Below are positions 9,056 to 33,607 of a stretch of 34,713 nucleotides of DNA, piece after piece. Location of the stretch: assembly GCA_013695925.1 (NCBI GenBank), contig JACCZO010000180.1, positions 1 to 34,713 of the forward strand, in the 5' to 3' direction. How positions within the stretch are numbered: position 1 is the stretch's first letter; each line of letters opens with the position of its first letter. The translations under genes were made by a program, and so were the position numbers. The stretch comes from Chthoniobacterales bacterium. Its GTDB lineage: Bacteria > Verrucomicrobiota > Verrucomicrobiia > Chthoniobacterales > UBA10450. Below the pieces are notes generated by a model. That model saw nothing but the letters and a program-made list of their open reading frames with translations. It ran no database searches and was not told the DNA's origin.

Positions 9056-9684
9056 GAGTCATCGCCGGAAGCTCCGGCGGCATCCGGCTCTTCGTTCCCA
9101 AGACCGATGTCCGGCCCACCATGGATCGGGTCAAAGCCGCCATCTTCTCCAGCCTGGGCGAGCGCGTTATCGGCGCGCGGGTGCTCGATCTCTTTGCCGG
9201 CACCGGCGCGCTCGGGATCGAGGCGCTCAGTCGCGGCGCGGCTTCTGCCATGTTTGTGGAAATCGATCGCCAGGCGATCGCCGCGATCGAACGCAATCTT
9301 GCCCAGACCGGCCTCAGCGGCCGGATTCGGAAACAGGACGTTTTTGATTTTCTCAATCACGCCAGCACCGCTGAGTCGCACGATCTGATTTTCGCCGACC
9401 CGCCCTACGACAAATCGAAGCTCGGCGATGCCTTCACCAAGCTTCTCCTGCGCAACGATCGTCTGCCCCCGCGCCTAACGAGTGACGGAATTTTCGTGCT
9501 CGAAAAAAGACCCGGCGAGCGCCTGCCGGCGACGGATTTTTGGGAAGTCACCCGGCGCAAAACCTACGGCGCGACCGAGACGATTTTCCTGCAAGTTGTA
9601 GCCGGGGGCGGTGACTCCGGCCGAGCCAGGGCCAAGAAAGCGTTACGCCAGCCGGGGTCAACGCCCCCGGCTACAACGCAATGA
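9052..9684 (+). CDS. rsmD: 16S rRNA (guanine966-N2)-methyltransferase RsmD
   Basis: Motifs present are MRVIAG..GG, RPTMDRVKAAIFS, LDLFAGTGALGIEALSRGA and FADPPYD. The C-terminal ~25 aa are read-through of a palindromic repeat (9595-9677). Confidence 0.88.
   Translation: MRVIAGSSGGIRLFVPKTDVRPTMDRVKAAIFSSLGERVIGARVLDLFAGTGALGIEALSRGAASAMFVEIDRQAIAAIERNLAQTGLSGRIRKQDVFDFLNHASTAESHDLIFADPPYDKSKLGDAFTKLLLRNDRLPPRLTSDGIFVLEKRPGERLPATDFWEVTRRKTYGATETIFLQVVAGGGDSGRARAKKALRQPGSTPPATTQ
9595..9677. repeat. REP-like palindromic element, family GTAGCCGGGGGCG (copy 1)
   Basis: GTTGTAGCCGGGGGCG (9595-9610) is the reverse complement of CGCCCCCGGCTACAAC (9662-9677), with additional inner pairing. A second copy lies at 25335-25404. 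Confidence 0.7.
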
Positions 9685-18039: not shown

Positions 18040-20495
18040 GGCATCACCTCCAACTCGAACGCCGCCGGATCGAGCGTCAAGAGCTCGGCTGCGCCTAACG
18101 ACGCCGGATCGCCGCCGTTCGGCAGATCTGCCTCGAGCCGGGCCTCCAATTTCGCCGCGCTTCCCGTGCGATAGAGTTTGTCGAGATCGACCGCGACCAC
18201 GCCCGCGATCGATTGCAGGAGCGCGATCACTTCGCTCAGGACGACGGGTTGCCCGAACTGCCGATTGGCGAAGGAGAATTGCTCACGCAACGCATCCAGC
18301 GCCGCGCTTAGCACCCTCTCGGTTTCGTAATCCGGGTCGACCTTGATCTTGCCCGCGACCTTGAAGAGCGCCTCCTTATACGATGCCACCCGGACCGGCA
18401 CGAACGGATCGCCCGCGTCGTGGATGGCCGTGATCAGATCGTCGGCTAACGAAGCGGAAACCGCGTCGCCGAGCGGGCCGGCAACGGTAAGGAAGACACC
18501 TCGCGTTCGCCCATCCCACGTCCAGGTGGCGAGCGTTTTCGCAATTCCGGCATAGCTGCGGCTGAAATCTTCGTAGTCCTGGAGCGAAACCACGCGCTCG
18601 AGAGTGAGGACGGTGAACGGCGCGTTTTCTTGCGCGTTGTCGAATGATTCGGGCTCGTCCGCGCCTTCCGCCGCGATCGGATTAATGGCCGATTTCAAAC
18701 CGGGCGGCCGGGTCAGGAGCGTGCTGAGCTGTCCCGCCCTAACGAGTCCCTCAAGGCCGATCCCGCGCCGGTAAGTGGCCTTCACATTTTGCGCACCGGA
18801 AGGGAGCCGGGCCCCGCGTTCACCATCGCCGAAACGCACCGTCACTTTGCCGTCGTCCGCCAGCTCGGTTGTGAAAATGCGCTCCCGTGGTCCGCGCTCG
18901 AAGAGAGTTGGCACTTCGTGCCAAAGCAGATCGTTTACCCGGACTTGCAGGGTCGAAGCAGCGCCACCCGGGTCGGTCGAGCGTGTGTAGGTCAGAGCCG
19001 GCGCCTGCTTCAACTTGAAGGTCTGGTTCGCCTGCGCGCCATCGCCGCTTCCGAGGACTTCGGAAACGGTCTCGCCATGGGTGGCCGGCGCGACGTTTCC
19101 GTAGATGATGAGATTGTCGCGCCGATAAATCTTCGGACTCGAGGGAACGAGCGCCGCGAAAGTGACTTTCGTTAGGCCGGCAGCGACTTCGACCTTTGTG
19201 ATTTCCACCAGCTCGCTTAGCGGGGAACCGGTGATGCCATTCACGCCGGAGAAAAGGAGCAGTCGACCCTCGGTCAGGCCATCGACTTTGCTGTTCAAAG
19301 TCACACTGTTGCCGCTCACCAGGGTGGTCACGGGCACGTCCGCGAGGGTGAGCTGCTCGCTCTGGAGATAGGCGGTGGTGGACCGGAGCGGCAACAAGGC
19401 GAGATCCCGGTCGGGCGTGATGCGGGTGATCTTGGCGCTAAGCGCGAACTCCGCCCGCGAGACGCTGGTCACGCTCACGGCTTTGTGCAGCTGGACGTAG
19501 AGCGGTTTCGTCAGCACGACCCAACTGTCGACGGTAACTTTCGGATAAACCGCATCGAGGTCGATCTCGTTGTTTTGCACCCTGAAATCCGGCCAATTGG
19601 TAAAGTTGTGATCCGTGTCGCCGTAGGCTTCGCGCACGCTGAACGGCATGGTCAGCCAGGCTGGAGCGTTGTTGCCGAAAAAGGCCGCGCGCTGCCGGAG
19701 AGCAAAAACTTTCACGCTCGCCGCGTTTAACGGTGTCGGGAGTTTGCTTAACGCGTCCTTCCACGTCACAACGGTGTAATTTTTTTCCGGGTAAGCGGCG
19801 ACGCTTTGGAGGATCCGAAATTCCCAAACTGTGCTGTTCTTATCGCTCTCGCGGGCGCTGCTGACGAAGACGAGCGCATCGCCCGGCTGCAATTTGGTCT
19901 CGACGCCCTTGAGGTAAACCTGCTTCGCACCGTTGCCGAGCAGCGGGGGCGCGGTCAACTGTGGCTTGAGCGCATTCCACTCCACGCGGGCGGCGATTTC
20001 CTCGATCGTCTCAAAAGTCTGCGGCGTCTCGTCCGCGTCCGGAACGCTTTGCACTTTCGTGCCGATCTTGACGGTGACCCCGGTCGGCGCACCGGGCGTT
20101 TCGTCGAGGAGAAAGGCCAGCGGCGTCTCGGCGGCGACCCCGGCTTTGAGACGATAACCAATGAGCTGGGCGAGACGCAGGACAGAGTCGCGCTCGGTCG
20201 CGGTCCTCAGCCAGAGTTCGTTCGCGATCCGTTCCTGATAAAAGGTGAGGACGTCGGCCAGGGTGGCCCAGCCGTCGAGGAGCGCGATGGTGAGATCGTC
20301 TGAATCGCGCGTCGTTAGGCTGCGGAGGGCGCTGAAACTGGGATCGGACAAGGCGGCGAGCGCGCTGGCCAGAAAATCCCCGTGCGTCCCGACGCGATAA
20401 CTGACCTGTGACAGGCCCGGGCGATTGCGCAGCAGCTCGGGCACGAGCGCGGTGATTCCCTCGCAGCAGCCGCAGTCGGTGAGTTTGGTTGCCAT
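18036..20495 (-). CDS. Putative baseplate assembly protein (large J-like/gp6-like wedge protein)
   Basis: It has the N-terminal CGCCEG motif, LDGWATLADVLTFYQERIANE, and a C-terminal VSLQDYEDFSRSYAGIAK...W..GR..V.LTVAG J-like motif. Confidence 0.8.
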   Translation of the reverse strand: MATKLTDCGCCEGITALVPELLRNRPGLSQVSYRVGTHGDFLASALAALSDPSFSALRSLTTRDSDDLTIALLDGWATLADVLTFYQERIANELWLRTATERDSVLRLAQLIGYRLKAGVAAETPLAFLLDETPGAPTGVTVKIGTKVQSVPDADETPQTFETIEEIAARVEWNALKPQLTAPPLLGNGAKQVYLKGVETKLQPGDALVFVSSARESDKNSTVWEFRILQSVAAYPEKNYTVVTWKDALSKLPTPLNAASVKVFALRQRAAFFGNNAPAWLTMPFSVREAYGDTDHNFTNWPDFRVQNNEIDLDAVYPKVTVDSWVVLTKPLYVQLHKAVSVTSVSRAEFALSAKITRITPDRDLALLPLRSTTAYLQSEQLTLADVPVTTLVSGNSVTLNSKVDGLTEGRLLLFSGVNGITGSPLSELVEITKVEVAAGLTKVTFAALVPSSPKIYRRDNLIIYGNVAPATHGETVSEVLGSGDGAQANQTFKLKQAPALTYTRSTDPGGAASTLQVRVNDLLWHEVPTLFERGPRERIFTTELADDGKVTVRFGDGERGARLPSGAQNVKATYRRGIGLEGLVRAGQLSTLLTRPPGLKSAINPIAAEGADEPESFDNAQENAPFTVLTLERVVSLQDYEDFSRSYAGIAKTLATWTWDGRTRGVFLTVAGPLGDAVSASLADDLITAIHDAGDPFVPVRVASYKEALFKVAGKIKVDPDYETERVLSAALDALREQFSFANRQFGQPVVLSEVIALLQSIAGVVAVDLDKLYRTGSAAKLEARLEADLPNGGDPASLGAAELLTLDPAAFELEVMP

Positions 20496-23011
20496 CAGCG
20501 GCCCCCTCCGAGTTTAAGGGTAAAAAAACCGCGCTCGGCAAAGTTCGGATCGTTCTCGAGGCGCGCGATCTCGAGCCGGTTCAGGGTGAGAAATCCGTTC
20601 GTTAGGCCGCTGCTCCCCGCCAGACCCTGACGCTCGAAGACTGTGATCTCGACCGAAGCGACGCCCGCCACCGCCTGGGCCGCGGCGTAGAGCGGGCTCA
20701 GGTAAACGGTCTGGCCGAAAGTGAAGAAGTCGGGCTGGAAAAGGCCCTTCCTCCCGTCGGCCAGGGTACGGCTGGAGAAAACGTCGAGCAGCGCGGCTTC
20801 GACATCGCTTCGAAAATAGTCCGGCTTCACGCAGACAAACATCTCGATCTCGAGCGGGACGTATTCCGGGGTGTCGATCTCCAGGTCGTGCCCGGCCATG
20901 CGATAGGGCTCGATCCCGGCTCGCAATTGGGCTTCGAATTCAGGCGTCAGGGGAAGCGCGTCGAAGCGATCGACCGTGATGAAGACGGTGTGCCAGCTTC
21001 CAGTCCAACGAAAAGTCGCAGCCGCGCGTTGCACCGAAGTATTGTGCTCGGCGGCCCGCGCGTAATCGGCTTCCGTCACCGCGCGTTTTTGCGTGCGAAA
21101 GGCCTGCGGCGCGTCGCGGCGGATTTGGTCAATCGTCTCGGGGTCGATCCCGCCGACCGCCGGCAGCGGATTGCGCACGCCGATGATTGCGGGATTGGCG
21201 CTGACAATGTGCGCCAGTGTTTCCGCGCCGACGTTTCCCGCAGTCCCGTTGCCCGTGCGATAAGTTGCGGTGAATGCCATTCCGAGCTTGGTCTTTGTCC
21301 CCGGCTCTGGCTCCTGGCCATATTCATCATCGCCGAAACGAATGCAGGCCGTGCCATCACTCTCTGTTTCGACGACGAACTCAGCCGCATCCGGCGCGCT
21401 GCCTAACAAATCGCGCTGCGGGTGCCAGGTCGCGCTGTCGAGCCCCAGCGTGCTCGTGAGGGAAATCGCCGGGAGGGCGCCTTCCGCACCGATCACCAGG
21501 CAGGCGGAGGCCGGGAGCGTCGCATCATACTCCGACGACTGGGTCAAAGGTCGCGCTTGCAAGGAGGGACGAAAGCGCGGCCGGGCGAACTGCGGCGGCG
21601 GACGATTGCAGCGGTCCGCGTCGGCCTCGGGCGGAAGCAGGATTTGCGGCGCCGGCACCGCGCCTAACGATTCTCCGGCCACGGTCAGGCCGTGATCGGC
21701 GAGGACGATATTGCCGTGGGCCATGCTCAGGTCGTCGCGAAATTGCCCGCCGTGCTCTTCGTCGGTGAAATCGGAGAGGCAGAACGGAAACGGCAGCGCG
21801 TCTTCCGTCTTCCATTCGATGTTGGTAATCTGCGTGCCGGTCAGCGGATCGGTCAGCGGCTCACTTGCTGCATTGAAGGTCTGCACATTCGTTAGGCGCA
21901 CGGCCCAGCGCCGGGTGCGATCGGCATCCTCTTCTTCCCCGGTCAGCGGGCCCCGCTGTTCCTCGAAAATCAGGACGGCGTCATCCGGCAAATCAGGAAA
22001 ATGGCCGGCCAGCGTCGCCTGCGTCGCCCCTTTGGGCAGACAACATTCGCGATCGCTCCAGGTATAAAACGGCATCGCGTTGTGCGCCGCGAAGAGTGTG
22101 ATTTCGTGCACGGTTTCAAAGACGAGCGGATGCAGGCGGAGCGCTTCCTCGAGCACGGCGGAGGCCGGCGGAATCCGGGTATCTGTGCGTACGAGCCGGC
22201 TGAAAATCCCGGTTTTGGCCGGCACGACGACGAGGTCCGCGGCCGAAGTCAGCTGCACCCAGACGCGGGCGTTAGTGCCGTTGTCGACGAAGTAATCGAC
22301 CAACCGCGCGTGGCGCTGGAGCGAGACCCGCTTGCGCGCCGAATTGAGATAAGCCTCGGTCGCGACCGCATCCTGCCGGTAGCTGAAATGATCGCCGAGG
22401 TAGGCGAGCAGCTCGACTAGCGTGATCCCGAGATCGGCCGGGTTGCGCTCGCGCCACTCCGGCACGAGGAGCGCCATCCGGTCGAGAATCAGTTTGCGGA
22501 AACTGGCGTAATCCTTCGCCAGGTAATTGATTTCCGGCTCGGCCCGCGGCGCGGGCGGGCAGAGATGTCGCGGCGCGCAATCGAAATCCGAGGGGCACTC
22601 GACCTTGAAGGAAAAATCGATCGCGGCGAGACGTGGATCGATCCCGTTAGGCGCATTCGCATCGTGCGGTCCGCGCACAAGCGCGAGAGTGTAAATCGAG
22701 AAATCTCCCGGCTCTTTCATCTCCACCGTCAGGACATCGCTGTCATCCCCCGTGCCGATGGTCACGCCCAGAATCACGATCGGCCGGATGCGTTCGCCAC
22801 CGCGGATGCTGAGGTTGGTCGCAGCGAGGGAGTTGGCCGCGATGTCGTTGACGAAATGCACGCGCAAAAACCGCTGCCGATTCGACTTGGGCAAGGGCGC
22901 GTCCTGGTCGACGACCTCGAGATAATCGATCCCATTGAGCGCGCTCCCGCGCACGGCGTCGCGCCGGCGTTCGTCGCAACAGAAATACAACGGCATGGTC
23001 GCTTCGCTCAT
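20495..23011 (-). CDS. Baseplate J/gp47-family protein (Afp11-like)
   Basis: It has the N-terminus LYFCCDERRRDAV...GIDYLEV and the C-terminal motif VTEADYARAAEHNTSVQRAAATFRWTGSWHTVFITVD. It overlaps the gp25 gene with ATGA. Confidence 0.8.
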   Translation of the reverse strand: MSEATMPLYFCCDERRRDAVRGSALNGIDYLEVVDQDAPLPKSNRQRFLRVHFVNDIAANSLAATNLSIRGGERIRPIVILGVTIGTGDDSDVLTVEMKEPGDFSIYTLALVRGPHDANAPNGIDPRLAAIDFSFKVECPSDFDCAPRHLCPPAPRAEPEINYLAKDYASFRKLILDRMALLVPEWRERNPADLGITLVELLAYLGDHFSYRQDAVATEAYLNSARKRVSLQRHARLVDYFVDNGTNARVWVQLTSAADLVVVPAKTGIFSRLVRTDTRIPPASAVLEEALRLHPLVFETVHEITLFAAHNAMPFYTWSDRECCLPKGATQATLAGHFPDLPDDAVLIFEEQRGPLTGEEEDADRTRRWAVRLTNVQTFNAASEPLTDPLTGTQITNIEWKTEDALPFPFCLSDFTDEEHGGQFRDDLSMAHGNIVLADHGLTVAGESLGAVPAPQILLPPEADADRCNRPPPQFARPRFRPSLQARPLTQSSEYDATLPASACLVIGAEGALPAISLTSTLGLDSATWHPQRDLLGSAPDAAEFVVETESDGTACIRFGDDEYGQEPEPGTKTKLGMAFTATYRTGNGTAGNVGAETLAHIVSANPAIIGVRNPLPAVGGIDPETIDQIRRDAPQAFRTQKRAVTEADYARAAEHNTSVQRAAATFRWTGSWHTVFITVDRFDALPLTPEFEAQLRAGIEPYRMAGHDLEIDTPEYVPLEIEMFVCVKPDYFRSDVEAALLDVFSSRTLADGRKGLFQPDFFTFGQTVYLSPLYAAAQAVAGVASVEITVFERQGLAGSSGLTNGFLTLNRLEIARLENDPNFAERGFFTLKLGGGR

Positions 23012-23373
23012 GCGGTCGCGACTCCTTTCGTGAACTCGGCGGTTTGCCGCGTCTGTGTTCGCCTAACGAGATAACGAACTGAAACGCGAAGGGTGGAATC
23101 CTCGCTCAGCACGTCGACCGCATCGACTTGGATGAGATCGCCCAGATACTGCTGCAGCGATCCCTGGACCAGATACTGGGTGGTCGCGGCGAGCTGGTCG
23201 CTGTTGGGCGCGAAGACGAGCTGGAGCAATCCGCTCCCGAAGTCCGGGCGGTTGACCCGTTCCCCCGGCGCGGTGAAGAGCACCTGCTCGATCAGGTCAC
23301 GAATATGCGCGTCGTAATCGACCGCGGCGGTGCGGCCGCGTGCGTCGAAGTGATACGGGAAAGCGATGTTCAC
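23008..23373 (-). CDS. GPW/gp25-family baseplate wedge protein (Afp9-like)
   Basis: The 121-aa product contains IRDLIEQVLFTAPGERVNRPDFGSGL, the classic gp25 core. The start is GTG. Confidence 0.9.
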   Translation of the reverse strand: MNIAFPYHFDARGRTAAVDYDAHIRDLIEQVLFTAPGERVNRPDFGSGLLQLVFAPNSDQLAATTQYLVQGSLQQYLGDLIQVDAVDVLSEDSTLRVSVRYLVRRTQTRQTAEFTKGVATA

Positions 23374-23937
23374 AGAAGATAACGAAGTTAACGAAGAGGA
23401 TTAGAAAGCGAGGCTGCGAGGTTCGGTGGACTCGCCAGAAGGTCAATTTCGTCCTGGTTGGCGGCGGGCAGAACCAACCTCGAGATGCCATTTTTAAGTG
23501 TCTGCTCGTGAAAGTTGAAGAGGAGGCCGATCGGAACGTCGAGCAACTTCATGTAGCTCAGGAGCTGCGCCTTGTGCACGCCGACGATGGTTTCCACAAC
23601 TTTCAGTTCGATGAGCAGGCAATTCTCGATCAGCAGGTCGAAGCGCAGCGGTTCGTCAAAAACGAATTGCTTGTATTCGATGCGCACGAGTTTTTGCTGG
23701 ACCGCGTTGATCCCGCGTAGCTGCAACTCACGCCCGAGACATTTTTCGTAGATCGACTCGATCAGGCCCGGCCCCATCTGCCGATGCACTTCAATCGCCG
23801 CGCCGATGACTTCTTTGCTGAGCTTGTCTGCCTGATGAAATAAAGGGTGCATGGTCAGGGGATAAAACAGAAGGCCAGGAAAGAAACGCAGGGGTGGTTC
23901 CCGGGAAGAACCCTTTGTGACCTTCGTTTCCTTCTGT
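23372..23937 (-). mobile_element. Putative GxxExxY gene cassette 1, bounded by 16-bp inverted repeats
   Basis: ACAGAAGATAACGAAG (23372-23387) compares with the reverse complement of CTTCGTTTCCTTCTGT (23922-23937), ACAGAAGGAAACGAAG, with 14/16 matching. The cassette fills the gp25-PAAR intergenic gap almost exactly. Confidence 0.35.
23388..23852 (-). CDS. GxxExxY-family protein (PD-(D/E)XK nuclease-like fold)
   Basis: The motif GLIESIY (GxxExxY) is followed by a D...ELK-type core (RFDLLIENCLLIELKVV) and LLFNF. The C-terminal tail is read-through of flanking repeat sequence. Confidence 0.85.
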   Translation of the reverse strand: MHPLFHQADKLSKEVIGAAIEVHRQMGPGLIESIYEKCLGRELQLRGINAVQQKLVRIEYKQFVFDEPLRFDLLIENCLLIELKVVETIVGVHKAQLLSYMKLLDVPIGLLFNFHEQTLKNGISRLVLPAANQDEIDLLASPPNLAASLSNPLR

Positions 23938-23949
23938 AAAAATGCTTTC

Positions 23950-24267
23950 TCATGTCGCCATGACGCGCGGTTGAGTAGTGAGGACGAGCAGGCCCTGCCC
24001 GGTCGGCACGCAGACCGCCTGGCTGGTCTGAACGATCACCGGCACGCCGCCGGCGAGGACGCGCGTTGCACCAACGACCCACTGCGCGCTTACGCAAGGT
24101 GGCGTGGACGTGCTCGCCAAGGCGCATCCCGCGACAACGTAGGGAGTGGCCAGAGTGACAACCGGCTGGCCGCTCACCAGGACACGCGGAAACGGCGCAG
24201 TCGGCTGGGCCGGGCCCGCGTGCATGCAGGTGACGACCGCGCCAAGGTGAACAATGGGTCCGGGCAT
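23950..24267 (-). CDS. PAAR-like (DUF4280-type) spike-tip protein (Afp10-like)
   Basis: The 105-aa product starts at the ATG at 24267 (MPGPIVHLGAVVTCMHAG). Its Cys pattern and VLVSGQPVVT / VLAGGVPVIV strands resemble PAAR-like cones. It sits in the position expected between the spike and gp25. Confidence 0.68.
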   Translation of the reverse strand: MPGPIVHLGAVVTCMHAGPAQPTAPFPRVLVSGQPVVTLATPYVVAGCALASTSTPPCVSAQWVVGATRVLAGGVPVIVQTSQAVCVPTGQGLLVLTTQPRVMAT

Positions 24268-24271
24268 AAGA

Positions 24272-24703
24272 TCAGAGGAATATTTCGTCCGCAGATTTCG
24301 CAGATTTTCGCAGATTGGAAGAGGCGGTCGGATCGAAAGCCAACCGCTCATACTGCAGGCTGGTTGCTCCAAAATTGACGAGGAGACCGCGTCTCAGCCC
24401 GGTCGCTGTCAGTGCGTTGATGACCTGTGCCCGATCGGCGCCGGAGAGCTGGGAGATCGCTTTTGTTTCCACCAGGACTGCCTCGAAGCAGATGAAGTCG
24501 GCGCGATAACTGCAGGTTAGGAGCTTGCCCTTATAGCGAATCGGTAAAGGCACTTCGGCTTGAAATGCGATCCCGCGCTCAGCGAACTCCAACGCCATCG
24601 CGGTCTGATAGACGATCTCCAGGAAGCCATGTCCTAGTTCGCGATGAACGGCCATCGCCGCACCGAGAATCGCGTAGGTTTCGGGATCTCTGACTTCTTT
24701 CAT
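24272..24703 (-). CDS. GxxExxY-family protein (PD-(D/E)XK nuclease-like fold), second paralog
   Basis: It contains GFLEIVY (GxxExxY), YRADFICFEAVLVETKA and LLVNFG. The last ~15 aa (SNLRKSAKSADEIFL) translate the CGCAGATT repeat. Confidence 0.85.
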   Translation of the reverse strand: MKEVRDPETYAILGAAMAVHRELGHGFLEIVYQTAMALEFAERGIAFQAEVPLPIRYKGKLLTCSYRADFICFEAVLVETKAISQLSGADRAQVINALTATGLRRGLLVNFGATSLQYERLAFDPTASSNLRKSAKSADEIFL

Positions 24704-24803
24704 CTTGGAATTTCATCCGCGGATTTCGCAGATTCTCGTAGATGGGATGGCCGGCCCTCTCTCTCCATCCGGAAAAATCTGCGTAAATCTGCGTAATCTG
24801 CGG
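24289..24803 (-). mobile_element. Putative GxxExxY gene cassette 2, bounded by ~27-bp inverted CGCAGATT-repeat arms
   Basis: CCGCAGATTTCGCAGATTTTCGCAGATT (24289-24316) compares with the reverse complement of ATCTGCGTAAATCTGCGTAATCTGCGG (24777-24803). An extra forward arm lies at 24717-24743. Confidence 0.35.
24717..24803. repeat. Palindromic CGCAGATT-repeat element (copy B)
   Basis: The left arm CCGCGGATTTCGCAGATTCTCGTAGAT and right arm ATCTGCGTAAATCTGCGTAATCTGCGG flank a spacer that contains its own GGATGG...CCATCC hairpin. Confidence 0.7.
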
Positions 24804-24807
24804 ACAC

Positions 24808-25320
24808 TTAAATAATCGTTAGGGCGCTGGCGTTGATGTCAGTGGAAGGACCGACCATGTTGATGATCGCGCCCTTGCCGTTGGAAATGATGATGCCGGT
24901 GTCGCTGACCGAGACCATCGCGCCGGTCGTAGTCTTGATCAGAATGCCACCGGTCGGACCCGGCACGTCGCTGATCGTCAGGCTATTTTGCAACGGTGTT
25001 TGAAAAGTGATTCCGGGAACGCCGGGCGGGACGATCAAAGCCGCGGCTGGCACTTCCGCGGCGCTGCCGTAGAAACAGCCAGTCCAGATCGGGTAATCGG
25101 GATCGCCATGCTCGTATTCGATCCAGACGGCGGACCCAACAATCGGCACCGTGAACATACCATTCTGGATCCCGGCGATCGGGAAACATGGCATGCACCA
25201 GCTCGACGGAAGCAGGCCGGTCACATCGGGCACGATCGCCATGATCCGCCCCATCATCATGGGATCGATGTTGTTCAGGACCGTGCCGCGATATTTGCCG
25301 AAGAATTTTTTATCACTCAT
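24808..25320 (-). CDS. Phage baseplate assembly protein V / gp5-like spike (VgrG OB-fold; Afp8 C-terminal part equivalent)
   Basis: It contains FFGKYRGTVLNNIDPMMMGRI...GSAVWIEYEHGDPDYPIWTG. I chose the ATG at 25320 because the GTG at 25389 would translate the REP-like palindrome. Confidence 0.85.
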   Translation of the reverse strand: MSDKKFFGKYRGTVLNNIDPMMMGRIMAIVPDVTGLLPSSWCMPCFPIAGIQNGMFTVPIVGSAVWIEYEHGDPDYPIWTGCFYGSAAEVPAAALIVPPGVPGITFQTPLQNSLTISDVPGPTGGILIKTTTGAMVSVSDTGIIISNGKGAIINMVGPSTDINASALTII

Positions 25321-25334
25321 AACGGTGCGTGGGC

Positions 25335-25404
25335 TGTAGCCGGGGGCGTTGAACCCGGCGGGACGAGGTGGCCGCCAGGCCGGGGTCACCGCCCCCGGCT
25401 ACAA
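25335..25404. repeat. REP-like palindromic element, family GTAGCCGGGGGCG (copy 2)
   Basis: TGTAGCCGGGGGCG (25335-25348) is the reverse complement of CGCCCCCGGCTACA (25390-25403). It matches the arms of the 9595-9677 element. Confidence 0.7.
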
Positions 25405-25428
25405 CTGCGGTTTGCCTATTTCGTTTCA

Positions 25429-26556
25429 TCATGCCGGGACTTTCGCGAAGGTGGAGATGAGGCCGTTGCGGGTGAGGGTGAAATCCTGTTTGAACTCGCC
25501 GCGCTTAATCTTGCTCGTCACACTCTTGACGTAGTAGAGGCCGTCGAAGGCTTCTCCGACGCCGCGCAGCCCAACCAGCCGGCGCGCTTTCAGGACCTGG
25601 CCATAACGCGCGACGTTCAGGCTGCCCGTGGCGGTCACGGCCTCGACGCTTCGCGCCGCTTTCGTTAGGCCAAGGACGGCGGCGCGGATCGGCGAATAAT
25701 TCGCGGTCTCGTTGATCGGCTCGAGGTTGAGCGGGATCGGCGGGATCAAACCGAGCGGCGGATTGAGCGGCGAAATGTTCGGGATCGGAATGGGAACTGG
25801 GACATGGGTCTGCTGGTTTTGGATGTAAACGATCGGGATGACCGCACCCTGCGAACGGAAGCTGCAGGAGACGCTCTCGATGTTACTCGCCGCATCCATG
25901 TTGATGCTGAGCGCCTTTTGTGGCTCGCCCACCTTTATTTCTGGACCCCAGTAGGCCACGCTCATCCCCGGCTCCGGGCCGGGATCGACATAAAAGACGT
26001 AGCCAACCTCATCCGCGAGCGAGCGGATGTAGGCGAGGTCTTTGCCCTGCTGCACCGGGATGCGATCGGTCGGGATCGGGATATCGATTAGGATGCTCGG
26101 GATGACGAGCGGGACGATGCCGAGGAAAGCGTACTTGAGCAGGATCAATCCCACACGCGCTTCCGGCGGCATGGCGGGAAACGGGAACCCGCTGAAGTCG
26201 ATGTAATCCATCACCCGGCTGAGATCTTCACCGGTGATGGTGAGGACGGAATGCGAGGCATCGGCCCCGGGACGGATCTCGTGATTGGTCATCACGCCAT
26301 CCATTAGCACCTCGGCATTGCCGCCGACCGTGACGATGATTACCACCCTGACGAGTGGAATCGACGCGCCGCCTGCGAGAAGGAAGATGGTTTGGAGCGG
26401 CGAGCGATGGCTGAGGGTGAACTCGAGCTGGAAACCGCTCCCGCTCTCGCTGTTCGTGGTCACACTGAGGGAGGTCAGTGCCTCGAGCACCTCCTGCGAG
26501 ACCGGCACAGGCACGACCGGGCCGATCATGAGCGTGAGATGAAAACCATTAGCCAT
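25429..26556 (-). CDS. Phage late control gene D-like baseplate hub protein (Afp8 N-terminal part equivalent)
   Basis: The 375-aa product has a gpD/VgrG-N-like sequence (DLAYIRSLADEVGYVFYVDPGP...). It lies immediately upstream of the gpV spike and overlaps the LysM gene by 8 nt. Confidence 0.72.
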   Translation of the reverse strand: MANGFHLTLMIGPVVPVPVSQEVLEALTSLSVTTNSESGSGFQLEFTLSHRSPLQTIFLLAGGASIPLVRVVIIVTVGGNAEVLMDGVMTNHEIRPGADASHSVLTITGEDLSRVMDYIDFSGFPFPAMPPEARVGLILLKYAFLGIVPLVIPSILIDIPIPTDRIPVQQGKDLAYIRSLADEVGYVFYVDPGPEPGMSVAYWGPEIKVGEPQKALSINMDAASNIESVSCSFRSQGAVIPIVYIQNQQTHVPVPIPIPNISPLNPPLGLIPPIPLNLEPINETANYSPIRAAVLGLTKAARSVEAVTATGSLNVARYGQVLKARRLVGLRGVGEAFDGLYYVKSVTSKIKRGEFKQDFTLTRNGLISTFAKVPA

Positions 26557-26911
26557 TTTGTGCTCCGGGAATGTTCTCCGGCAGGGTGATGCGGAGGCGG
26601 CGGCCGACCGGCTCGATCAGTTCGTTAGGCCGAACCGCGCCGTTGGCGTCGCAAAGCCGCCAGAACTGCTCCGGATCGCCGAGATACTTCGCCGCGATTT
26701 GATCCAGCCGCTCCCCTTCGGTCACGCTGTGCTCCTGCAGGAGGGCGAAATTCTCCGGCGGCGGAACGAAGCGGCGCCGCAGATAAGCCACCTCGGTTCC
26801 GTCCGGCATCGTCAGCTTGGCGAGCGGCGTTTGGTGGTATCGGCTGTTGGCCGGGAAGGCCGGGGTGGCGGCGCCGGTTTGCTGGAGCAGGGCCTGGAGT
26901 TGATCGCTCAT
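26549..26911 (-). CDS. LysM-like / tail protein X-like protein
   Basis: The 120-aa product has a C-terminal HSVTEGERLDQIAAKYLGDPEQFWRLCDANG...GRRLRITLP region that is LysM-like. Its position matches the LysM part of Afp7. Confidence 0.68.
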   Translation of the reverse strand: MSDQLQALLQQTGAATPAFPANSRYHQTPLAKLTMPDGTEVAYLRRRFVPPPENFALLQEHSVTEGERLDQIAAKYLGDPEQFWRLCDANGAVRPNELIEPVGRRLRITLPENIPGAQNG

Positions 26912-26939
26912 TTTTCGTTAGCAAGAAAGACGGTTTCAT

Positions 26940-27021
26940 CCGCAGATTTCGCAGATTTACGCAGATTTCTTTCCGGCACTTCGGCGCTTCCTAAATCTGC
27001 GAAAATCTGCGTCATCCGCGG
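26940..27021. repeat. Palindromic CGCAGATT-repeat element (copy C, gene-less)
   Basis: CCGCAGATTTCGCAGATTTACGCAGATTT (26940-26968) is mirrored by AAATCTGCGAAAATCTGCGTCATCCGCGG (26993-27021). It fills the gap between the tube-like and LysM genes. Confidence 0.72.
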
Positions 27022-27026
27022 ACCTT

Positions 27027-27689
27027 TCATGAAATCCCCTTGATCCCGAAGTTGGCGAAGGATCCGTTAGGCGCGAGGCCCGCGAGCCGTTCCTTTTGCT
27101 GCTGGTAAATCATGTAAAGACTCCCCGCCTTGGCCTCGAAACCGACATCGTTCACACTCAGGACGCGCAGCCCGAGGCTGACCTTGGCCCGGATGGGATT
27201 GAGGTTCGGATCGAAGGCTTCCTCCGTGATGCTGAATTCCGTCAGGCGCACCGGGATGATCCGGTTCTTGCTCCAGATAAAAAGCGTAAGCGCGGACTGC
27301 ATCGGGATGATCTCGAGCGTGCCCGATTTCGAGAGCGCGTTGTTCGATTGCAACTGCTCGCTCGTCGGATAAACGATCGCCTCCAGCGCCGCGAGCTGCG
27401 GATGAATCCCGACCTCGACCGCGTTCGTATTTTGATCCGGAAACTCGAGCTGATCGGTCGCGTCGATCTCCGCATCGAGCTTGATCGTTTCCACCGGCGG
27501 CCCCTTCAGCCGCAATATCTCGGAACGATCACCGCCGCCATCCGCGCTCACGCCTTGGATTTGGAGCGAACGCGTCAGCGTGTCGGGATTGTATTGCAGC
27601 GAAATAATCCGCTGCACTGCGCCCGAGTCCGGATTCACGAGGACGATGCCGCCCTTGAGCAGTTTTGGTGAATTGGGAAAAGTGCTCAT
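27027..27689 (-). CDS. CIS tube-like protein (tube initiator / Afp7 N-terminal-like)
   Basis: The 220-aa product contains LLKGGIV...ISLQYNPDTLTRSL...LRLKGPPVETIKLDAEIDATD...IIPVRLTEFSITEEAFDPNLNPIRAKVSLGLRVL, resembling gp19/CIS-tube-fold proteins of eCIS loci. Confidence 0.68.
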   Translation of the reverse strand: MSTFPNSPKLLKGGIVLVNPDSGAVQRIISLQYNPDTLTRSLQIQGVSADGGGDRSEILRLKGPPVETIKLDAEIDATDQLEFPDQNTNAVEVGIHPQLAALEAIVYPTSEQLQSNNALSKSGTLEIIPMQSALTLFIWSKNRIIPVRLTEFSITEEAFDPNLNPIRAKVSLGLRVLSVNDVGFEAKAGSLYMIYQQQKERLAGLAPNGSFANFGIKGIS

Positions 27690-27692
27690 TCG

Positions 27693-29162
27693 TTAGGCAA
27701 GCTGGTCTCCTCCCTCGACCCGGTCGGGGCCGGCGTAGAGCGTGCCACTCGGCCGCTCCAACATTGCGCCCTGCTTCTTTTGGCCGCCGCTCGGCGCCGC
27801 GGCCGGTGCGGCCGTAGTCGTGATTTTGCAGGGACTGGTTTGATCGGTCAGGTCCTTGACGCACATCGAGCCCTTCTGCCAATCGTAGTTGTATTCCGGA
27901 CTCGCCCAGACGGCGGCCAGGTTCCCTTTGTGCGCAAAATAGAGCCGCTTGATTTTCGTCATGTTTTTCGCCGCTGTTTCTCCTTTCGCCAGGCCCTCGA
28001 TGCAGTCCTTGACCGCGTGCCCGTCGGCGCTTTTAAGTCCGCTCACCTGTTTGACCAGCGCTGCGTCCACCTCGCCTTCCTTGCCTTTCGGAATCTGACT
28101 CGGATCGGTCAGTTCGGTTCCGTCGGGCAGCACGAGGGGCGTAACCACGCTGACGATGCTCCAGCAGGTCATGCCGCGGGCCTTCTGCGCGCCGACATTT
28201 TGACGGAAGGTTTCCATCTCCTGCGGAGCGTCGCCGAGCTTGCAGCCACGAAAATCGATCAGCGCCGGTGCCTTGTCCGCAGGAATGCCCTTCAGATCCT
28301 TGCTCAAGTCGGAGAGCTTGACCCAGGAGATTGTCCCGATACCGGAGATGACCTGCACTTCGCCCGCGCGGTTCGAATGCGAGACGACGAAAATGGTGCC
28401 GATCGGTTTGCCTAACGCCAATAGCTTTTTCTTGGCATCTTCCCCACTGGTCACGCGGATGGCGGTCGGGGCGTAGCTTTTCCCTTCCGTCATCGCGTCC
28501 GCTTCGTCGCCGAAAACGATCGCCACATCGATCCGTTCTTCTGGTTTGGCGTCGTCGCGTTGCACCGCGTGACGGCCGGGCGCGGTCTGCTGTACGACAT
28601 GGGCGAGCTCGTGCGCGAGAAGTTTCTGGCCCGCCGCCGTCGCCGGCGCGTACCGCCCAGCGTTAAAAGCGATGTGGCTGCCCACGGTGTAGGCGTGCGC
28701 CCGAACGGCCCGCGCGCTTTCCGCCGCCCGCGAATCAGCATGAATGCGCACGTCTCCAAAATGATGACCGAAGTGGGAAGACATCCGGTCCCGCGTCGCC
28801 GAATCGAGCGGCTCGCCGCCGGATGCGACCACCTCATCCACGATCGGCGGCGAGGTCATGTCGCCGAGAGAGTCTCCGTTCCACGACGAGAGCCGCGCCC
28901 GGGACGCGCTCGAGCCTAACGAGTCGGCCGCCCGGTCCGCCTCCTCTTCCAAGGCGCTACCAGAAGCCGTCACAACCAGTTTGGCCTGCAGCTTCGCCGG
29001 CGGGCGCTCCGTCGCGCGCTGCTGCTTGCGACAGCTCTCGCATTCTCCCGCGGGCCCGGGGGTTCCACCGCAGGCGCATTTGCGCTGGAGCCGCGCACTC
29101 CGCCAGGGCGCGGACAGTTGCGCTGTGCTCGCCTGGGTTTGCAGTAGATTCGCCTCTTTCAT
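27693..29162 (-). CDS. DUF4157 domain protein 3 (Cys-rich leader + DUF4157 with HELAH + orphan ~285 aa C-terminal domain)
   Basis: Its parts are the leader LQRKCACGGTPGPAGECESC, EEEADRAAD, and the DUF4157 core PPIVDEVVASGGEPLD...FGHHFGDVRIHAD...AYTVGSHIAF...LLAHELAHVVQQ. It overlaps the upstream gene with ATGA. Confidence 0.85.
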   Translation of the reverse strand: MKEANLLQTQASTAQLSAPWRSARLQRKCACGGTPGPAGECESCRKQQRATERPPAKLQAKLVVTASGSALEEEADRAADSLGSSASRARLSSWNGDSLGDMTSPPIVDEVVASGGEPLDSATRDRMSSHFGHHFGDVRIHADSRAAESARAVRAHAYTVGSHIAFNAGRYAPATAAGQKLLAHELAHVVQQTAPGRHAVQRDDAKPEERIDVAIVFGDEADAMTEGKSYAPTAIRVTSGEDAKKKLLALGKPIGTIFVVSHSNRAGEVQVISGIGTISWVKLSDLSKDLKGIPADKAPALIDFRGCKLGDAPQEMETFRQNVGAQKARGMTCWSIVSVVTPLVLPDGTELTDPSQIPKGKEGEVDAALVKQVSGLKSADGHAVKDCIEGLAKGETAAKNMTKIKRLYFAHKGNLAAVWASPEYNYDWQKGSMCVKDLTDQTSPCKITTTAAPAAAPSGGQKKQGAMLERPSGTLYAGPDRVEGGDQLA

Positions 29163-31957
29163 GGCAGCGGATGGCGGGCGTTTAGTTGTTCCGCGAGGTC
29201 GACGATCTTGCTTTGGTGTCCGGCGATGATGTTACTGACCCGGCCGACGAGGGCGCGCAAAAGCAGGCGAGTCCGTTCCGGCGTCGTCGTTAGGGCAAAA
29301 AAATCGTCGCCGAGAACGATGGAAGTGCCCGGGCCGGCCGACCACGAAGTGGTTTTCGCCGCCGGATCGCGCTTCGCGTTCAGATCAGCGCGGACCCGAT
29401 TGAGCAGAGTCTTGTAACGGTCGGCCAGGCCCGCGACCGCAAAGCGATCGTCATCGGTCGGGAGGGCGGGCGGCGGCGTTAGGCCAAACTGCGCGGCGAT
29501 CAGCTTCATCGTTTCTTCGTAGTAGCTGTTGGTCCATTTCTTCTTCGGGGGACGCGATTCCACCATCGTGGAATAGGTGCTGGCCGTTTCCTGGTGGGAC
29601 CATTTCAACCAGTCCGCCAAGAGAGTGATGGCGTCGGCCACGCCGGATTTCTCGCCCGCGGCGACGGTCAGTTTGTCCACCGGAAGCTTCGGCCGGGCAA
29701 AGGACGGATCCGCCGCCAGCATGACGAAAAGCGAGTAACTGTCGGAGTTCTGCAGCGCCTGGTCCGGCGTCAGGCTGGCGATGCGGCGTTCGTGCCGGTA
29801 AGCGATATCAGTCGTGCCGGCCGTCTTCCCTGCGAGGCCCAGCCCCGGCGTGCCGTGGGCGGTTTCGTGGATGAAATTGCGTTTCCGTTCCTGCTTGCCG
29901 GCGCTCACGAAGGTCGGGCAAAGCGTCAGCGTCGCCTTCTTGCCTTCATCTTCGTTGTAGGCAATCGCTACCGTGCAGGTGCCGTTGCATAGCGTCCCGC
30001 AGCGATGTCGCTTTTTCTTCGCCACGATGTCCATTTGCGCCCGAACCTTCCCCAGGTTCGCGTCCAGCGTCGTCATCATCGCGGCCCCGCTGCCCGCGCC
30101 GCCTCCCCCCCCGAAAAACTCGTCCCGCAGATCGTTCGTACTTGCATCCGTTCCTGAGGTGAGAAGCCGGCGGGCCTTGTCGATTAATCCCTGCGCCTCC
30201 GTCCGTACCGCGACGAAATCCGTTTCGACGTTGGCGCTGCACGGCCCGGTGGCCGCCGTCTTTTTGCAATCAGGAACCGCGGAGGTGGCCCCGGCGGGCC
30301 CGATCTCGACCTCGCGCAAGCTGCGATAGTCGAGCCGTCCGTCGCCGACATCGGGCTTCGGGTCCGGCTTGCGTTTGCCGGTGTGTCCGACCGTCTTCAA
30401 TTCCGCATCGACCGCATTGATCCGCCGGTCGGCCAGGGTCCGGCCGATTGCCGGGGTCGTCGCCTCATCCTCGCTTACCCGACCGATGAGATCGAGATCG
30501 TCTCCGCTGTGCGCTCCGCCGCCGGCGATGAGGACGGCAAACTTTCCCTCCGAGCCGATCGCGACATCGTTGCGCTCAAAAAAGACGCTATGGGCGCCAG
30601 ACGAACCCATCCCGCTCTTGCGCCCCGTCACCTCCAGGCCCGCCGGAACGGCCCGCTGCACGGCGGGCGGCAGTGCGCTCTGCTGCAAGACGTGGGTCAA
30701 CTCGTGCGCGAGCAACTGGCGGCCGGCATTTGTCTCCGGGGCAAAGCTGCCGCCGGCAAAAACGACATCCTGCCCGACCGTGTAGGCCCGGGCCTGGACG
30801 GCGCGGGCCGATTCCGCCGCGCGTCCGTCGCGATGAATCCGCACGCTTCCAAACTCGTAACCGAAACGATCTTCCATGAACTCGCGCGTCGCGCGGTCGA
30901 GCGGTTCTCCGGACGATTGCAGTACCTGATCGACGATCGGGGGCGCGCTGCCCACTTCCTGATGGCCCGCGGCCTTGCGCTGGAGGGTTCCTTCTTCTTT
31001 TTTCTTCGGTTCCTCGCTCGTTTCGCCGCTCAGTTTGAAATCCGGAGCCCACGGGCCTAACGAACGTCGCGGCCCCGCGGCCGGGGCCCCGGGGCGGAAA
31101 CCGGGATCCTGCCCCACCGCCCCGAAGGAGAGCGGCGAGGTGCGCGGCGTCAGCTGGCCGGGAGCGAGCATCCGGCTCGAGACGTAGGCGTTGATCATCT
31201 CTTGCTCGCTCGCCTTCTCTTCATCGCTCTTGAGGCCTTCGCGAAACTTCGCCTGGTCCGCCGCCATCCGCGCGGTCTCGGCCCGGAACTTTTCGGTCTC
31301 GCTGAGCGTGGTTTTTTTGTCGCGCGTCTTTTCTTTGCCTAACGGAATGCTGAAGGTCGCGACCACCTTGGTCGGTTTATCGACCGGCCCTTCATAGGTG
31401 ATTTTCATCTTCAGGCCGGGCCTGATCTTATCGAGCGGGATCTCGGGAATTCCGATCGGCAATTCCTTGTGCGTGGCCGCGAGGGTCGCGACCGCTCCGG
31501 CAACGGCGGCGCCGGTAATGATCTTCCCCGGCAAGGTCGAAATGAAGGCGTCTCCGAGCTCTTCTGCTTTTTTTGTGATCTCTTTGCCCTGCGGAGTTTC
31601 GAGAAACGCTTCGCCCACCTTCTTGGCTGCTTCTTTGTATTTTTCCTCTTCGGATTTCGGCTTGGCCGGTTCTTCGCGTTGCACGGCACCGCCGCTACCT
31701 AACGAACTGATTGAAGGGCGGCCCGTGCGCCCCCCGCCGACCGCCTCTTCGGCTACCCGGTCGGCCTCCTGCTCGTACTGGTCGCCGGGCTGATTAATCG
31801 CCAACTTGGTCTGTAACGATAGCCGTTGCCGTTTGCACTCGGCACACTCCCCGGTCGGCCCGGGAGTTCCGCCGCAGGCGCACTTGCGCTGCAGCGTTGG
31901 TTGGGCGGAAAGCTTGCTGGCTGTGGCTTGGACAGGCTGAGCGACAGTTACTCTCAT
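29159..31957 (-). CDS. DUF4157 domain protein 2 (Cys-rich leader, ~300 aa K/E-rich linker, DUF4157 with HELTH, C-terminal aspzincin-like HExxH domain)
   Basis: Its parts are LQRKCACGGTPGPTGECAEC, EQEADRVAE, PPIVDQVLQSSGEPLD...FGYEFGSVRIHRD...LLAHELTHVLQQ, and then a second motif set, FIHETAHG...GTTDIAY...LQNSDSYSLF. There are ATGA overlaps at both ends. Confidence 0.85.
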   Translation of the reverse strand: MRVTVAQPVQATASKLSAQPTLQRKCACGGTPGPTGECAECKRQRLSLQTKLAINQPGDQYEQEADRVAEEAVGGGRTGRPSISSLGSGGAVQREEPAKPKSEEEKYKEAAKKVGEAFLETPQGKEITKKAEELGDAFISTLPGKIITGAAVAGAVATLAATHKELPIGIPEIPLDKIRPGLKMKITYEGPVDKPTKVVATFSIPLGKEKTRDKKTTLSETEKFRAETARMAADQAKFREGLKSDEEKASEQEMINAYVSSRMLAPGQLTPRTSPLSFGAVGQDPGFRPGAPAAGPRRSLGPWAPDFKLSGETSEEPKKKEEGTLQRKAAGHQEVGSAPPIVDQVLQSSGEPLDRATREFMEDRFGYEFGSVRIHRDGRAAESARAVQARAYTVGQDVVFAGGSFAPETNAGRQLLAHELTHVLQQSALPPAVQRAVPAGLEVTGRKSGMGSSGAHSVFFERNDVAIGSEGKFAVLIAGGGAHSGDDLDLIGRVSEDEATTPAIGRTLADRRINAVDAELKTVGHTGKRKPDPKPDVGDGRLDYRSLREVEIGPAGATSAVPDCKKTAATGPCSANVETDFVAVRTEAQGLIDKARRLLTSGTDASTNDLRDEFFGGGGGAGSGAAMMTTLDANLGKVRAQMDIVAKKKRHRCGTLCNGTCTVAIAYNEDEGKKATLTLCPTFVSAGKQERKRNFIHETAHGTPGLGLAGKTAGTTDIAYRHERRIASLTPDQALQNSDSYSLFVMLAADPSFARPKLPVDKLTVAAGEKSGVADAITLLADWLKWSHQETASTYSTMVESRPPKKKWTNSYYEETMKLIAAQFGLTPPPALPTDDDRFAVAGLADRYKTLLNRVRADLNAKRDPAAKTTSWSAGPGTSIVLGDDFFALTTTPERTRLLLRALVGRVSNIIAGHQSKIVDLAEQLNARHPLP

Positions 31958-33249: not shown

Positions 33250-33500
33250 TCCGTTCCTCCTTTCCAAATCGTGCGCGCAATCTGCCGACCAGCGCGCGAC
33301 GGTTTCGTTAGACTTGCGGCGCGTAGCGGGCCGGCCTCGATTTTTTCCGGACTCTGATGCCAGGCCACCGGGAGGCCTTTTTCCATCAGCAATCCACGCA
33401 ACTCGCTTTCCAGCACGTCGCCGATCCGCCAGCGATCACCCGGGGCAAAGCCGTGCAGGACCAGCTCCTCGATGTGGACCTCGATCTCGCGCGGATTCAT
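33246..33500 (-). CDS. Small conserved-looking hypothetical protein (84 aa), translationally coupled to the first DUF4157 gene
   Basis: It starts at the ATG at 33500 (MNPREIEVHIEELVLHGFAPGDRWRIGDVLESELRGLL). The 37 codons upstream in the track ORF translate repeat element D. Confidence 0.6.
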   Translation of the reverse strand: MNPREIEVHIEELVLHGFAPGDRWRIGDVLESELRGLLMEKGLPVAWHQSPEKIEAGPLRAASLTKPSRAGRQIARTIWKGGTE

Positions 33501-33514
33501 AGGACTGAGGTGAT

Positions 33515-33598
33515 CCGCAGATTTCGCAGATTCACGCAGATGATTTGGGGCGCTTTTTCCTTTCCTCAAATCTGCGGACATCTGCGTCATCTGCAGAT
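33515..33598. repeat. Palindromic CGCAGATT-repeat element (copy D, gene-less)
   Basis: CCGCAGATTTCGCAGATTCACGCAGAT (33515-33541) is mirrored by AAATCTGCGGACATCTGCGTCATCTGCAGAT (33568-33598). It fills the gap between the ATPase and the small gene. Confidence 0.72.
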
Positions 33599-33607
33599 TA
33601 TTTAGTC

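Follow-up and report, generated by a model that had tools for sequence, protein, structure and literature searches.

Repeat-bounded GxxExxY genes inserted at stop/start junctions of a contractile injection system operon

Why should an operon for an extracellular contractile injection system (eCIS) carry two small genes of the GxxExxY family, one on either side of its PAAR-like gene and each enclosed by inverted repeats of its own? The question is raised by a 34,713-nt stretch of DNA from a Chthoniobacterales bacterium (contig JACCZO010000180.1; this whole stretch is referred to below as the window), in which the operon lies on the minus strand. The order on the transcript is tube, p120 (our name for a 120-aa gene), hub-like gene, spike, GxxExxY-2, PAAR-like gene, GxxExxY-1, gp25 and Baseplate_J. 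An earlier note on the window described the two genes and considered that they might be either small selfish elements that home into intercistronic sites or a nuclease module that the injection system had recruited. Comparison with related loci shows that both gene cassettes are later insertions at stop/start junctions of the operon and are not a component of the eCIS. As to their nature, we lean on balance towards insertion cassettes of a single widespread, repeat-bounded class, in which the nuclease would act on its own repeats and which has derivatives resembling MITEs (miniature inverted-repeat transposable elements) or REPINs (hairpins of repetitive extragenic palindromic, or REP, sequences).

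The first point to establish is what the operon looks like without the cassettes. For this we used 64 related eCIS loci and four longer ones, collected by exact-protein look-ups and by a metagenome scan with the PAAR-like protein. Cassette 1 (23370..23949, minus strand) is a 580-bp insertion running from the PAAR stop to the gp25 start, a length that includes one copy of a duplicated TGA. In an alignment with loci L004, L005 and L006 the empty site reads GCGACATGAACATCG. The filled site in the window reads GCGACATGA, then the 580 bp of the insertion (GAAAGC...TCTTCTGTGA), then ACATCG, with TGA on either side of the insertion. The junction alignment further shows that the GTG start of gp25 is contributed by the last bases of the cassette, within its proximal repeat arm. 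In about 30 other eCIS loci the PAAR and gp25 genes overlap at ATGA or GTGA with no insert, and among the eCIS loci compared cassette 1 is restricted to the window's own lineage.

Cassette 2 (24272..24807, minus strand; about 536 bp, with boundaries certain to within about 3 nt either way) extends from the spike stop (24808-24810) to the TCTT-ATG of the PAAR gene. It is present in loci L004-L007, L087, L095, L098 and L150, and absent from L088-L093, L096, L097, L144 and L147 as well as from all distant eCIS loci. At the empty sites 4-6 nt separate the spike stop from the PAAR ATG, and the spike proteins encoded there are 63-94% identical to that of the window (89-94% excluding L096 and L097). 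Both cassettes have a lower GC content, overall and at third codon positions (GC3), than the neighbouring genes; the overall value is 0.53 for cassette 1, against 0.62-0.69 in its flanking genes, and 0.55 for cassette 2, also below its flanking genes.

These distributions bear directly on the idea that the nucleases are eCIS accessories or effectors, that is, recruited components or cargo of the injection system. Such systems commonly carry nuclease effectors as cargo, and a position on either side of the PAAR-like gene would suit that role. However, none of the other related loci has cassette 1, and cassette 2 is missing from about ten close loci and every distant one; proteins of the cassette-2 clade also sit between metK and ahcY and between gltB and gltD, with other clades between fabD and fabG or after radA. 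With the genes missing from close eCIS relatives and the family present in housekeeping operons, the recruited module of the earlier note is not borne out, and we consider an eCIS role barely credible. The same empty sites, for both cassettes, speak against a conserved component and uphold the alternative in that note, of elements lying at intercistronic sites in the orientation of the operon and having gene-less relatives.

Each cassette has the same layout on the transcript strand, arm A, loop, inverse arm A', gene and a second A'. In cassette 2, arm A consists of three CGCAGATT units with a 9-10-nt period (24776..24805; here and below, arms are given without strand), and pairs with the proximal A' at 24287..24316 (inverted repeat I1: 30 nt, 93% complementary). 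The extra A' copy 5' of the gene occupies 24716..24743 (I4: 28 nt, 82% complementary). The proximal A' lies within the last codons of the GxxExxY-2 gene (24272..24703, minus strand, 143 aa), of which it encodes residues ∼129 to 138 (NLRKSAKSAD). This inverted repeat is strong, with a score of 25 against a shuffle maximum of 10, and CGCAGATT occurs 17 times in the window where 1.9 occurrences are expected. The extra A' and arm A form a local hairpin with a z-score of −3.4 (all hairpin z-scores are DNA-fold z-scores). The piece comprising loop and A' is polymorphic, being missing in L007, L095, L098 and L150.

The repeats of cassette 1 are weaker. Its arm A, ACAGAAGGAAACGAAGG on the transcript strand, lies at 23913..23943 and takes part in inverted repeats I3 and I5. 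The extra A' copy 5' of the gene start is at 23867..23893 (I5: 27 nt, 70% complementary), and the proximal A' at 23366..23396 (I3: 31 nt, 77% complementary) lies over the stop of the GxxExxY-1 gene (23388..23852, minus strand, 154 aa), for which an in-frame TGA follows at the junction, five codons past its TAA stop. Taken alone the inverted-repeat pair, which scores 13.5 where shuffles reach at most 12, is weak, as is the local hairpin of A and extra A' (z-score −1.1); the repeat motif occurs four times against 0.26 expected. Every repeat that the earlier note listed is found, the 3' repeat does lie within the last codons in both cassettes, and the distances given to neighbouring genes are correct to within 1 nt. 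The small GC hairpins it reported are also present, but they are the loops of the local hairpins, formed with a third arm that had been missed. Neither promoter-like nor terminator-like sites were found within the two cassettes.

The repeat–gene–repeat anatomy extends well beyond this operon. Over 1,200 proteins are close homologues of the cassette-2 type (G2). Translation of the A' arm gives them a C-terminal NLRKSAKSADEIYL tail, whose conservation was seen across more than 100 of them. We surveyed 80 loci of this clade from species-representative genomes, mostly of Verrucomicrobiota, with others from Chloroflexota, several proteobacterial classes, Phycisphaerae, Nitrospinae and Calditrichia. 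A CGCAGATT-type arm A lies directly 5' of the gene in 78 of them, and the inverse A' is in the last codons in all 80. A long open reading frame (ORF) on the same strand ends no more than 25 nt from the terminal unit at 73 of the 80 loci, the distance being 0-8 nt at 59, and at 15 the stop of the element overlaps the start of the next gene as ATGA. The junctions between metK and ahcY and between gltB and gltD recur as host sites.

This is mirrored in other clades. Cassette-1-type (G1) proteins that are 70-77% identical and sit at unrelated loci have the same ACAGAAGG/AACGAAGG repeats; L151, L153 and L154 each have a G1 homologue flanked by the cassette 1 repeat family, and the layout in L153 is exactly that of the window. 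Because the same repeat recurs around homologues elsewhere, the weak repeat pair of cassette 1 gains weight. Further afield, among cultured bacteria, three copies of CGCGAAGG surround the gene found between fabD and fabG in Sphingomonas parapaucimobilis, three of CACAGAGGA surround that after radA in Bacteroides finegoldii, and CACAGAGA repeats accompany a GxxExxY gene in Bernardetia. A Treponema gene has a weak repeat pair, and one from Gemmatirosa adjoins CGCGGAT-type hairpins. Unit sequences are thus specific to the protein clade. A scan of viral contigs found no cassette-1 relatives.

The earlier note had named two findings that would speak against insertion, namely the same two genes at the same place without repeats in all distant relatives, and no such repeats around other GxxExxY genes. 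The orthologous loci include empty sites, and inverted repeats flank the genes at 78 to 80 of the 80 cassette-2-clade loci and in several other clades; neither of the two contrary findings holds, which favours the insertion reading.

As a separate observation on the cassette-1-type repeats, in L151 (3400-3900) and L154 (2650-2930) they form tandem arrays of three to four complete hairpins beside the gene, in the manner of bacterial interspersed mosaic elements, and in L151 these are followed by a second hairpin family with GAACG/CGTTC units.

The two proteins are indeed the paralogues they were taken for, about 30% identical and both above the curated cut-offs. For PF13366 (PDDEXK_3, cut-off 22 bits) GxxExxY-1 scores 128 bits and GxxExxY-2 123 bits, and for TIGR04256 (GxxExxY, cut-off 35 bits) each scores 132 bits. 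Residues G26, E29, Y32, D69, E79 and K81, which make up the GxxExxY motif and the catalytic D...ExK, are invariant in 77 sequences across both clades. An AlphaFold2 (AF2) model built from the alignment of these 77 sequences has a predicted local distance difference test (pLDDT) score of 85.6; it was used instead of a model from 20 close sequences, which was too poor (pLDDT 51). Among PDB structures Foldseek places Cas4 SSO0001, lambda exonuclease, RecE and the AdnAB nuclease at the top, at template-modelling (TM) scores that are modest (about 0.45), and weaker matches include tRNA-splicing endonucleases. By family and by predicted structure the protein is a putative nuclease of the PD-(D/E)XK fold.

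A search of PDB sequences with the family profile found no solved structure, and the PADLOC (defence) and PHROGs (phage) libraries gave no match. The family is very large, with 15,550 clusters at 50% identity in a profile search at E up to 1e-10 and 36,266 at E up to 0.001, and a hidden Markov model scan of all the collected loci found no further GxxExxY paralogues. Many family representatives of about 260-295 aa (P0241-P0250 and others) have two GxxExxY domains in tandem; these may be true fusions, or else a pair of neighbouring cassettes that is read as a single ORF.

We then asked on what level the arms are constrained. In the eCIS clade the A' codons have a synonymous diversity of 0.02 and the rest of the gene one of 0.51; the corresponding values for the ahcY clade are 0.16 and 0.56. 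The amino acids encoded by A' are no more conserved than the core, and the AF2 model shows the tail of GxxExxY-2 as disordered (pLDDT below 50). Low synonymous diversity, unexceptional amino-acid conservation and a tail predicted to be disordered together indicate that the constraint acts on the nucleotides. The arms are conserved as 8-mers with a 9-10-nt period, whereas the spacers are free. In the outermost unit, the bases at position 2 of the two ends covary (GC in 41 cases, AT in 13, mismatched in 1), with the inner units looser, and in L095 and L150 CGCAGATT is altered to CGCAGATG in both arms. The covariation and this paired change are compatible with one factor that would recognise both ends.

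A constraint on nucleotides might instead reflect a role in RNA, with the arms pairing in the operon mRNA for processing, stability or translational control. The module would then be akin to an ORF-bearing rRNA intervening sequence or to REP elements that stabilise mRNA. Such an RNA-level module would be in keeping with elements that are always sense-oriented and, by position, co-transcribed, with their stable hairpins, and with the tRNA-splicing endonucleases among the weaker fold matches. However, arm mismatches comprise 25 sense-strand G-U against 65 A-C pairs, and 16 against 27 in a second count; with no excess of sense-strand G-U, selection for a sense RNA stem is disfavoured. Conservation follows 8-mer units whose spacers are free and whose period is near one DNA helical turn, and covariation that is strictest at the outermost unit is a better fit to recognition of ends than to stability of a stem. 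There is also no Rfam match, and a role in RNA would explain function but leave the insertion polymorphism unexplained. We therefore regard this alternative as highly unlikely.

The gene is not always present between the arms. In agreement with the earlier note, gene-less versions of the cassette-2 repeat lie elsewhere in the operon, and they fold strongly. One CGCAGATT hairpin element, resembling a MITE or REPIN, occupies 26912..27026 on the minus strand (hairpin 26941-27011; z-score −5.9) at the ATGA overlap of tube and p120, and the ATGA is duplicated, one copy on each side. The empty form of this junction, TTTCATGAGCGAC, is seen in L092, L093 and L097, and the filled form, TTTCATGA followed by the insert and ATGAGCGA, in the window, L005 and L007. 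A second CGCAGATT hairpin (33500..33607, minus strand; hairpin 33516-33586; z-score −6.6) reaches from the stop of the AAA-ATPase gene (GCGATGA) to the next gene (ATGAATCCG). ATGA can be read on both sides of it; L005 is rearranged there, so that this is not an empty-site comparison. It is plausible that recombination between the two direct A' copies of cassette 2 gave rise to the gene-less form, as it would leave exactly that structure.

Hairpins of other families occupy the same kind of junction. At the PAAR–gp25 ATGA, L007 has a gene-less 148-nt hairpin of AATGACGAA units (4755-4902) and L087 a gene-less 110-nt hairpin of AAATCCGAA units (855-967), each with ATGA on both sides. Together with cassette 1 of the window this makes three independent elements of different repeat families at one junction, with (A/G)TGA flanking each. 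L147 carries a different insert, of 70 nt, at the tube–p120 ATGA, and gene-less hairpins are also found in the flanks of other loci. A scan of positions 20000-34713 against Rfam at a permissive threshold gave two chance-level matches only and no family for the hairpins.

Several further repeats were seen at or near these junctions. A separate hairpin family, TGTAGCCGGGGGCG...CGCCCCCGGCTACA, which resembles a GTAG-tagged REP palindrome, is found in the window at 25335-25403 and 9595-9677; one copy occupies the spacer between hub-like gene and spike, and the L147 insert is of the same sequence type. In the distant loci L107, L110-L113, L117 and L149, arrays of the GTCATCC(C/T)GAGG type, 160-290 nt long and ending with an inverted copy, lie in the spike–PAAR spacer, the junction that cassette 2 occupies in the window. 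At the junction of p120 and the hub-like gene, an 8-nt overlap in all other loci, L006 (region 1415-1580) has 111 nt of inserted sequence that includes a GC-rich hairpin. In L017 a gene-less flank hairpin (7085-7190) shares a rare terminal variant (CCACAGATT...AATCTGTGG) with the gene-bearing element of that genome, which hints at matching of hairpin and resident element within a genome.

This abundance of gene-less hairpin families at the same junctions (L007, L087, L147, the GTCATCC(C/T)GAGG arrays and the GTAG-type palindromes of the window) raises the possibility that GxxExxY is a passenger. The repeats would then be REP- or MITE-like vehicles moved by another, unseen enzyme, and the gene, which might encode a nuclease of addiction, defence or repair, would be cargo kept in place by lying inside the repeat unit. 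The low copy number and vertical inheritance of the G2 genes described below, and the existence of GxxExxY genes without repeats, also favour this reading. Against it, domain scans found no transposase, integrase or RAYT (REP-associated tyrosine transposase) domains in the 34.7-kb window, the proteins have no defence or phage family matches, across phyla the unit sequence goes with the protein clade, and the 3' arm is inside the reading frame in all 80 loci surveyed. We think a passenger gene unlikely.

The history of the elements was examined with quick neighbour-joining trees, made without bootstrap, of the G2 proteins and of the eCIS loci. In the G2 tree the copies cluster by host site (eCIS, metK–ahcY and gltB–gltD), with the eCIS copies monophyletic. 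In the eCIS tree filled loci enclose an empty one, L088, and a further filled locus, L098, falls outside their group. This suggests that within the eCIS cassette 2 has undergone precise loss and/or spread between alleles, by gain plus loss or by repeated gain. Such a pattern would also be expected of a free-standing homing endonuclease gene, which would cut the empty intercistronic allele and spread by recombinational repair through the homology of the operon, its repeats being secondary. PD-(D/E)XK homing endonucleases exist, I-Ssp6803I being an example, and a small gene set between conserved genes, patchy among close eCIS relatives and monophyletic there, fits the description. Homing leaves unexplained, however, the conserved and covarying terminal repeats, the gene-less derivatives, the spread of one clade over many unrelated host sites and the duplication of stop codons, and we judge it distinctly improbable.

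How, then, might the cassettes work? Under the reading that we favour, the element would be a promoterless gene for a small PD-(D/E)XK nuclease between inverted arrays of about three 8-9-nt units, placed directly 3' of a same-strand stop codon, often at an ATGA stop/start overlap, and with a stop or ATGA on both sides. Because of the stop or ATGA on both sides, the upstream stop is kept, the element's ORF ends at or near the junction and the downstream start is kept. The cassette would be transcribed, and probably translated, with the host operon. Hairpin-only derivatives (arm, loop, arm) occupy other operon junctions, standing to the gene-bearing form as MITEs do to their parent elements or REPINs to RAYT. 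We infer binding of the nuclease to the unit arrays of its own element, whether these are in duplex form or extruded as hairpins; its cuts would move or maintain both the element and the gene-less copies, with host repair finishing the reaction. A nuclease acting on its own arrays ranks first for us, followed by the passenger gene, the homing endonuclease gene and the RNA-level module in that order. The stronger claim, that GxxExxY proteins are the enzymes of an unrecognised class of mobile element, in which a nuclease of ∼120 aa alone moves cassette and hairpins into stop-codon/ATGA junctions and duplicates the stop while leaving all three frames intact, is offered tentatively and is, in our view, rather doubtful.

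A number of points weigh against the favoured reading. Since the G2 tree clusters by host site, most copies must be old and vertically inherited rather than recently hopping. In the 8-kb pieces examined, two G2-type copies, 68% identical, were found on one contig. Six insertion events were compared, with a duplicated TGA, ATGA or about 5 nt, and the apparent target duplication invariably includes a stop codon. It may be the outcome of selection rather than of the cutting mechanism, because only insertions that spare both neighbouring genes survive; a true target duplication is equally possible. The ends of the element are asymmetric, with 0-4 nt outside the 5' arm against 12-29 nt outside the 3' arm. 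The pairing of protein clade and repeat family could be mere co-inheritance of one unit, and three of about 14 genes sampled from other clades (from Prevotella, Fusobacteria and Persicobacter) have no detectable flanking repeat. We know of no 120-aa nuclease that performs transposition acting alone, and the mobility and activity proposed for the element are read from sequence patterns.

Turning to the rest of the operon, on the minus strand, the tube gene (27027-27689) is assigned by its CIS_tube match, the spike (24808 to about 25320) by a Phage_base_V domain, gp25 (23008-23373, with a GTG start) by PF04965 and Baseplate_J (20495-23011) by its domain match; p120 lies at 26549-26911 and the hub-like gene at 25429-26556. 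The PAAR-like gene (23950-24267) has a weak match to DUF4280 (E 0.0036, below the cut-off). Upstream of tube are an AAA ATPase and three eCIS_core proteins, the latter in succession within 27693-33267, one of which additionally has a peptidase domain, Aspzincin_M35. In its left part the window carries ordinary chromosomal genes, among them rho, glnE and kdtA. Two ORFs run through hairpins. The 193-aa, GTG-start spike ORF (24808-25389) runs through the REP-like hairpin; its true start is likely to be the ATG at 25320, giving the 170 aa called in L001. The 121-aa ORF at 33246-33611 runs through a CGCAGATT hairpin, and its start is likely to be the ATG near 33500.

Such cassettes and hairpins should be allowed for in the annotation of eCIS and other operons, the 193-aa and 121-aa ORFs being over-extended examples. 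Many odd 'hypothetical' tails and short ORFs would be accounted for as translated repeats. More generally, a very large family of unknown function is now tied to a defined DNA anatomy and insertion behaviour, in an element that can inhabit tightly coupled operons without breaking them, through the stop and start codons that are kept, and the combination points to a REPIN/RAYT-like or insertion sequence (IS)-like system built on a different enzyme class. Clear examples in cultured hosts are those of Bacteroides finegoldii (after radA) and Sphingomonas parapaucimobilis (fabD, GxxExxY, fabG). Literature naming GxxExxY, PDDEXK_3, PF13366 or TIGR04256 yielded nothing on repeats or mobility, a passing remark in database family notes being possible, and nothing equivalent was found in literature on intercistronic mobile elements, on MITEs at stop/start overlaps or on the proteins of intervening sequences.

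Several known systems share parts of this anatomy. The ORF-containing intervening sequences of 23S rRNA also have a small ORF in an inverted-repeat stem within a transcription unit, but the cassettes lie at mRNA operon junctions, encode another protein family and have no sense-strand RNA pairing signature. Integron cassettes are likewise promoterless single ORFs with an imperfect hairpin-forming repeat, in one orientation and expressed from upstream; here, by contrast, there is no integrase in the window and no attI array, and the repeats lie on both sides at ordinary operon junctions. Homing endonuclease genes (seg/mob of phage T4; I-Ssp6803I) resemble the cassettes as small nuclease genes wedged between conserved genes, patchy and clustered by host site, yet they are without the terminal repeat arrays, gene-less hairpins and many unrelated host sites found here.

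The closest likenesses are to two kinds of element. With IS elements and MITEs the cassettes share inverted repeats of ∼30 nt at or near the ends, internally deleted gene-less derivatives, a junction duplication of 3-5 nt (which here includes the stop codon and may be the work of selection) and presence or absence among relatives. They differ in being without a DDE, HUH, serine, tyrosine or Cas1 transposase, in being only ∼0.55 kb, promoterless and asymmetric at the ends, and in that no recent multi-copy bursts of the gene-bearing form were seen in the 8-kb pieces. From the REPIN–RAYT system they are set apart by the protein, a PD-(D/E)XK nuclease where RAYT is an HUH/Y1 transposase, by arms built as arrays of three 8-9-nt units, free of GTAG/CGTC tags and, on the 3' side, read through by the gene, and by an intercistronic, sense-oriented position directly after stop codons. 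What the cassettes have in common with that system is a protein gene that is present in few copies, is passed on mostly by vertical descent and has its cognate palindromic repeats on either side, together with gene-less hairpins in extragenic space and one repeat family for each protein clade.

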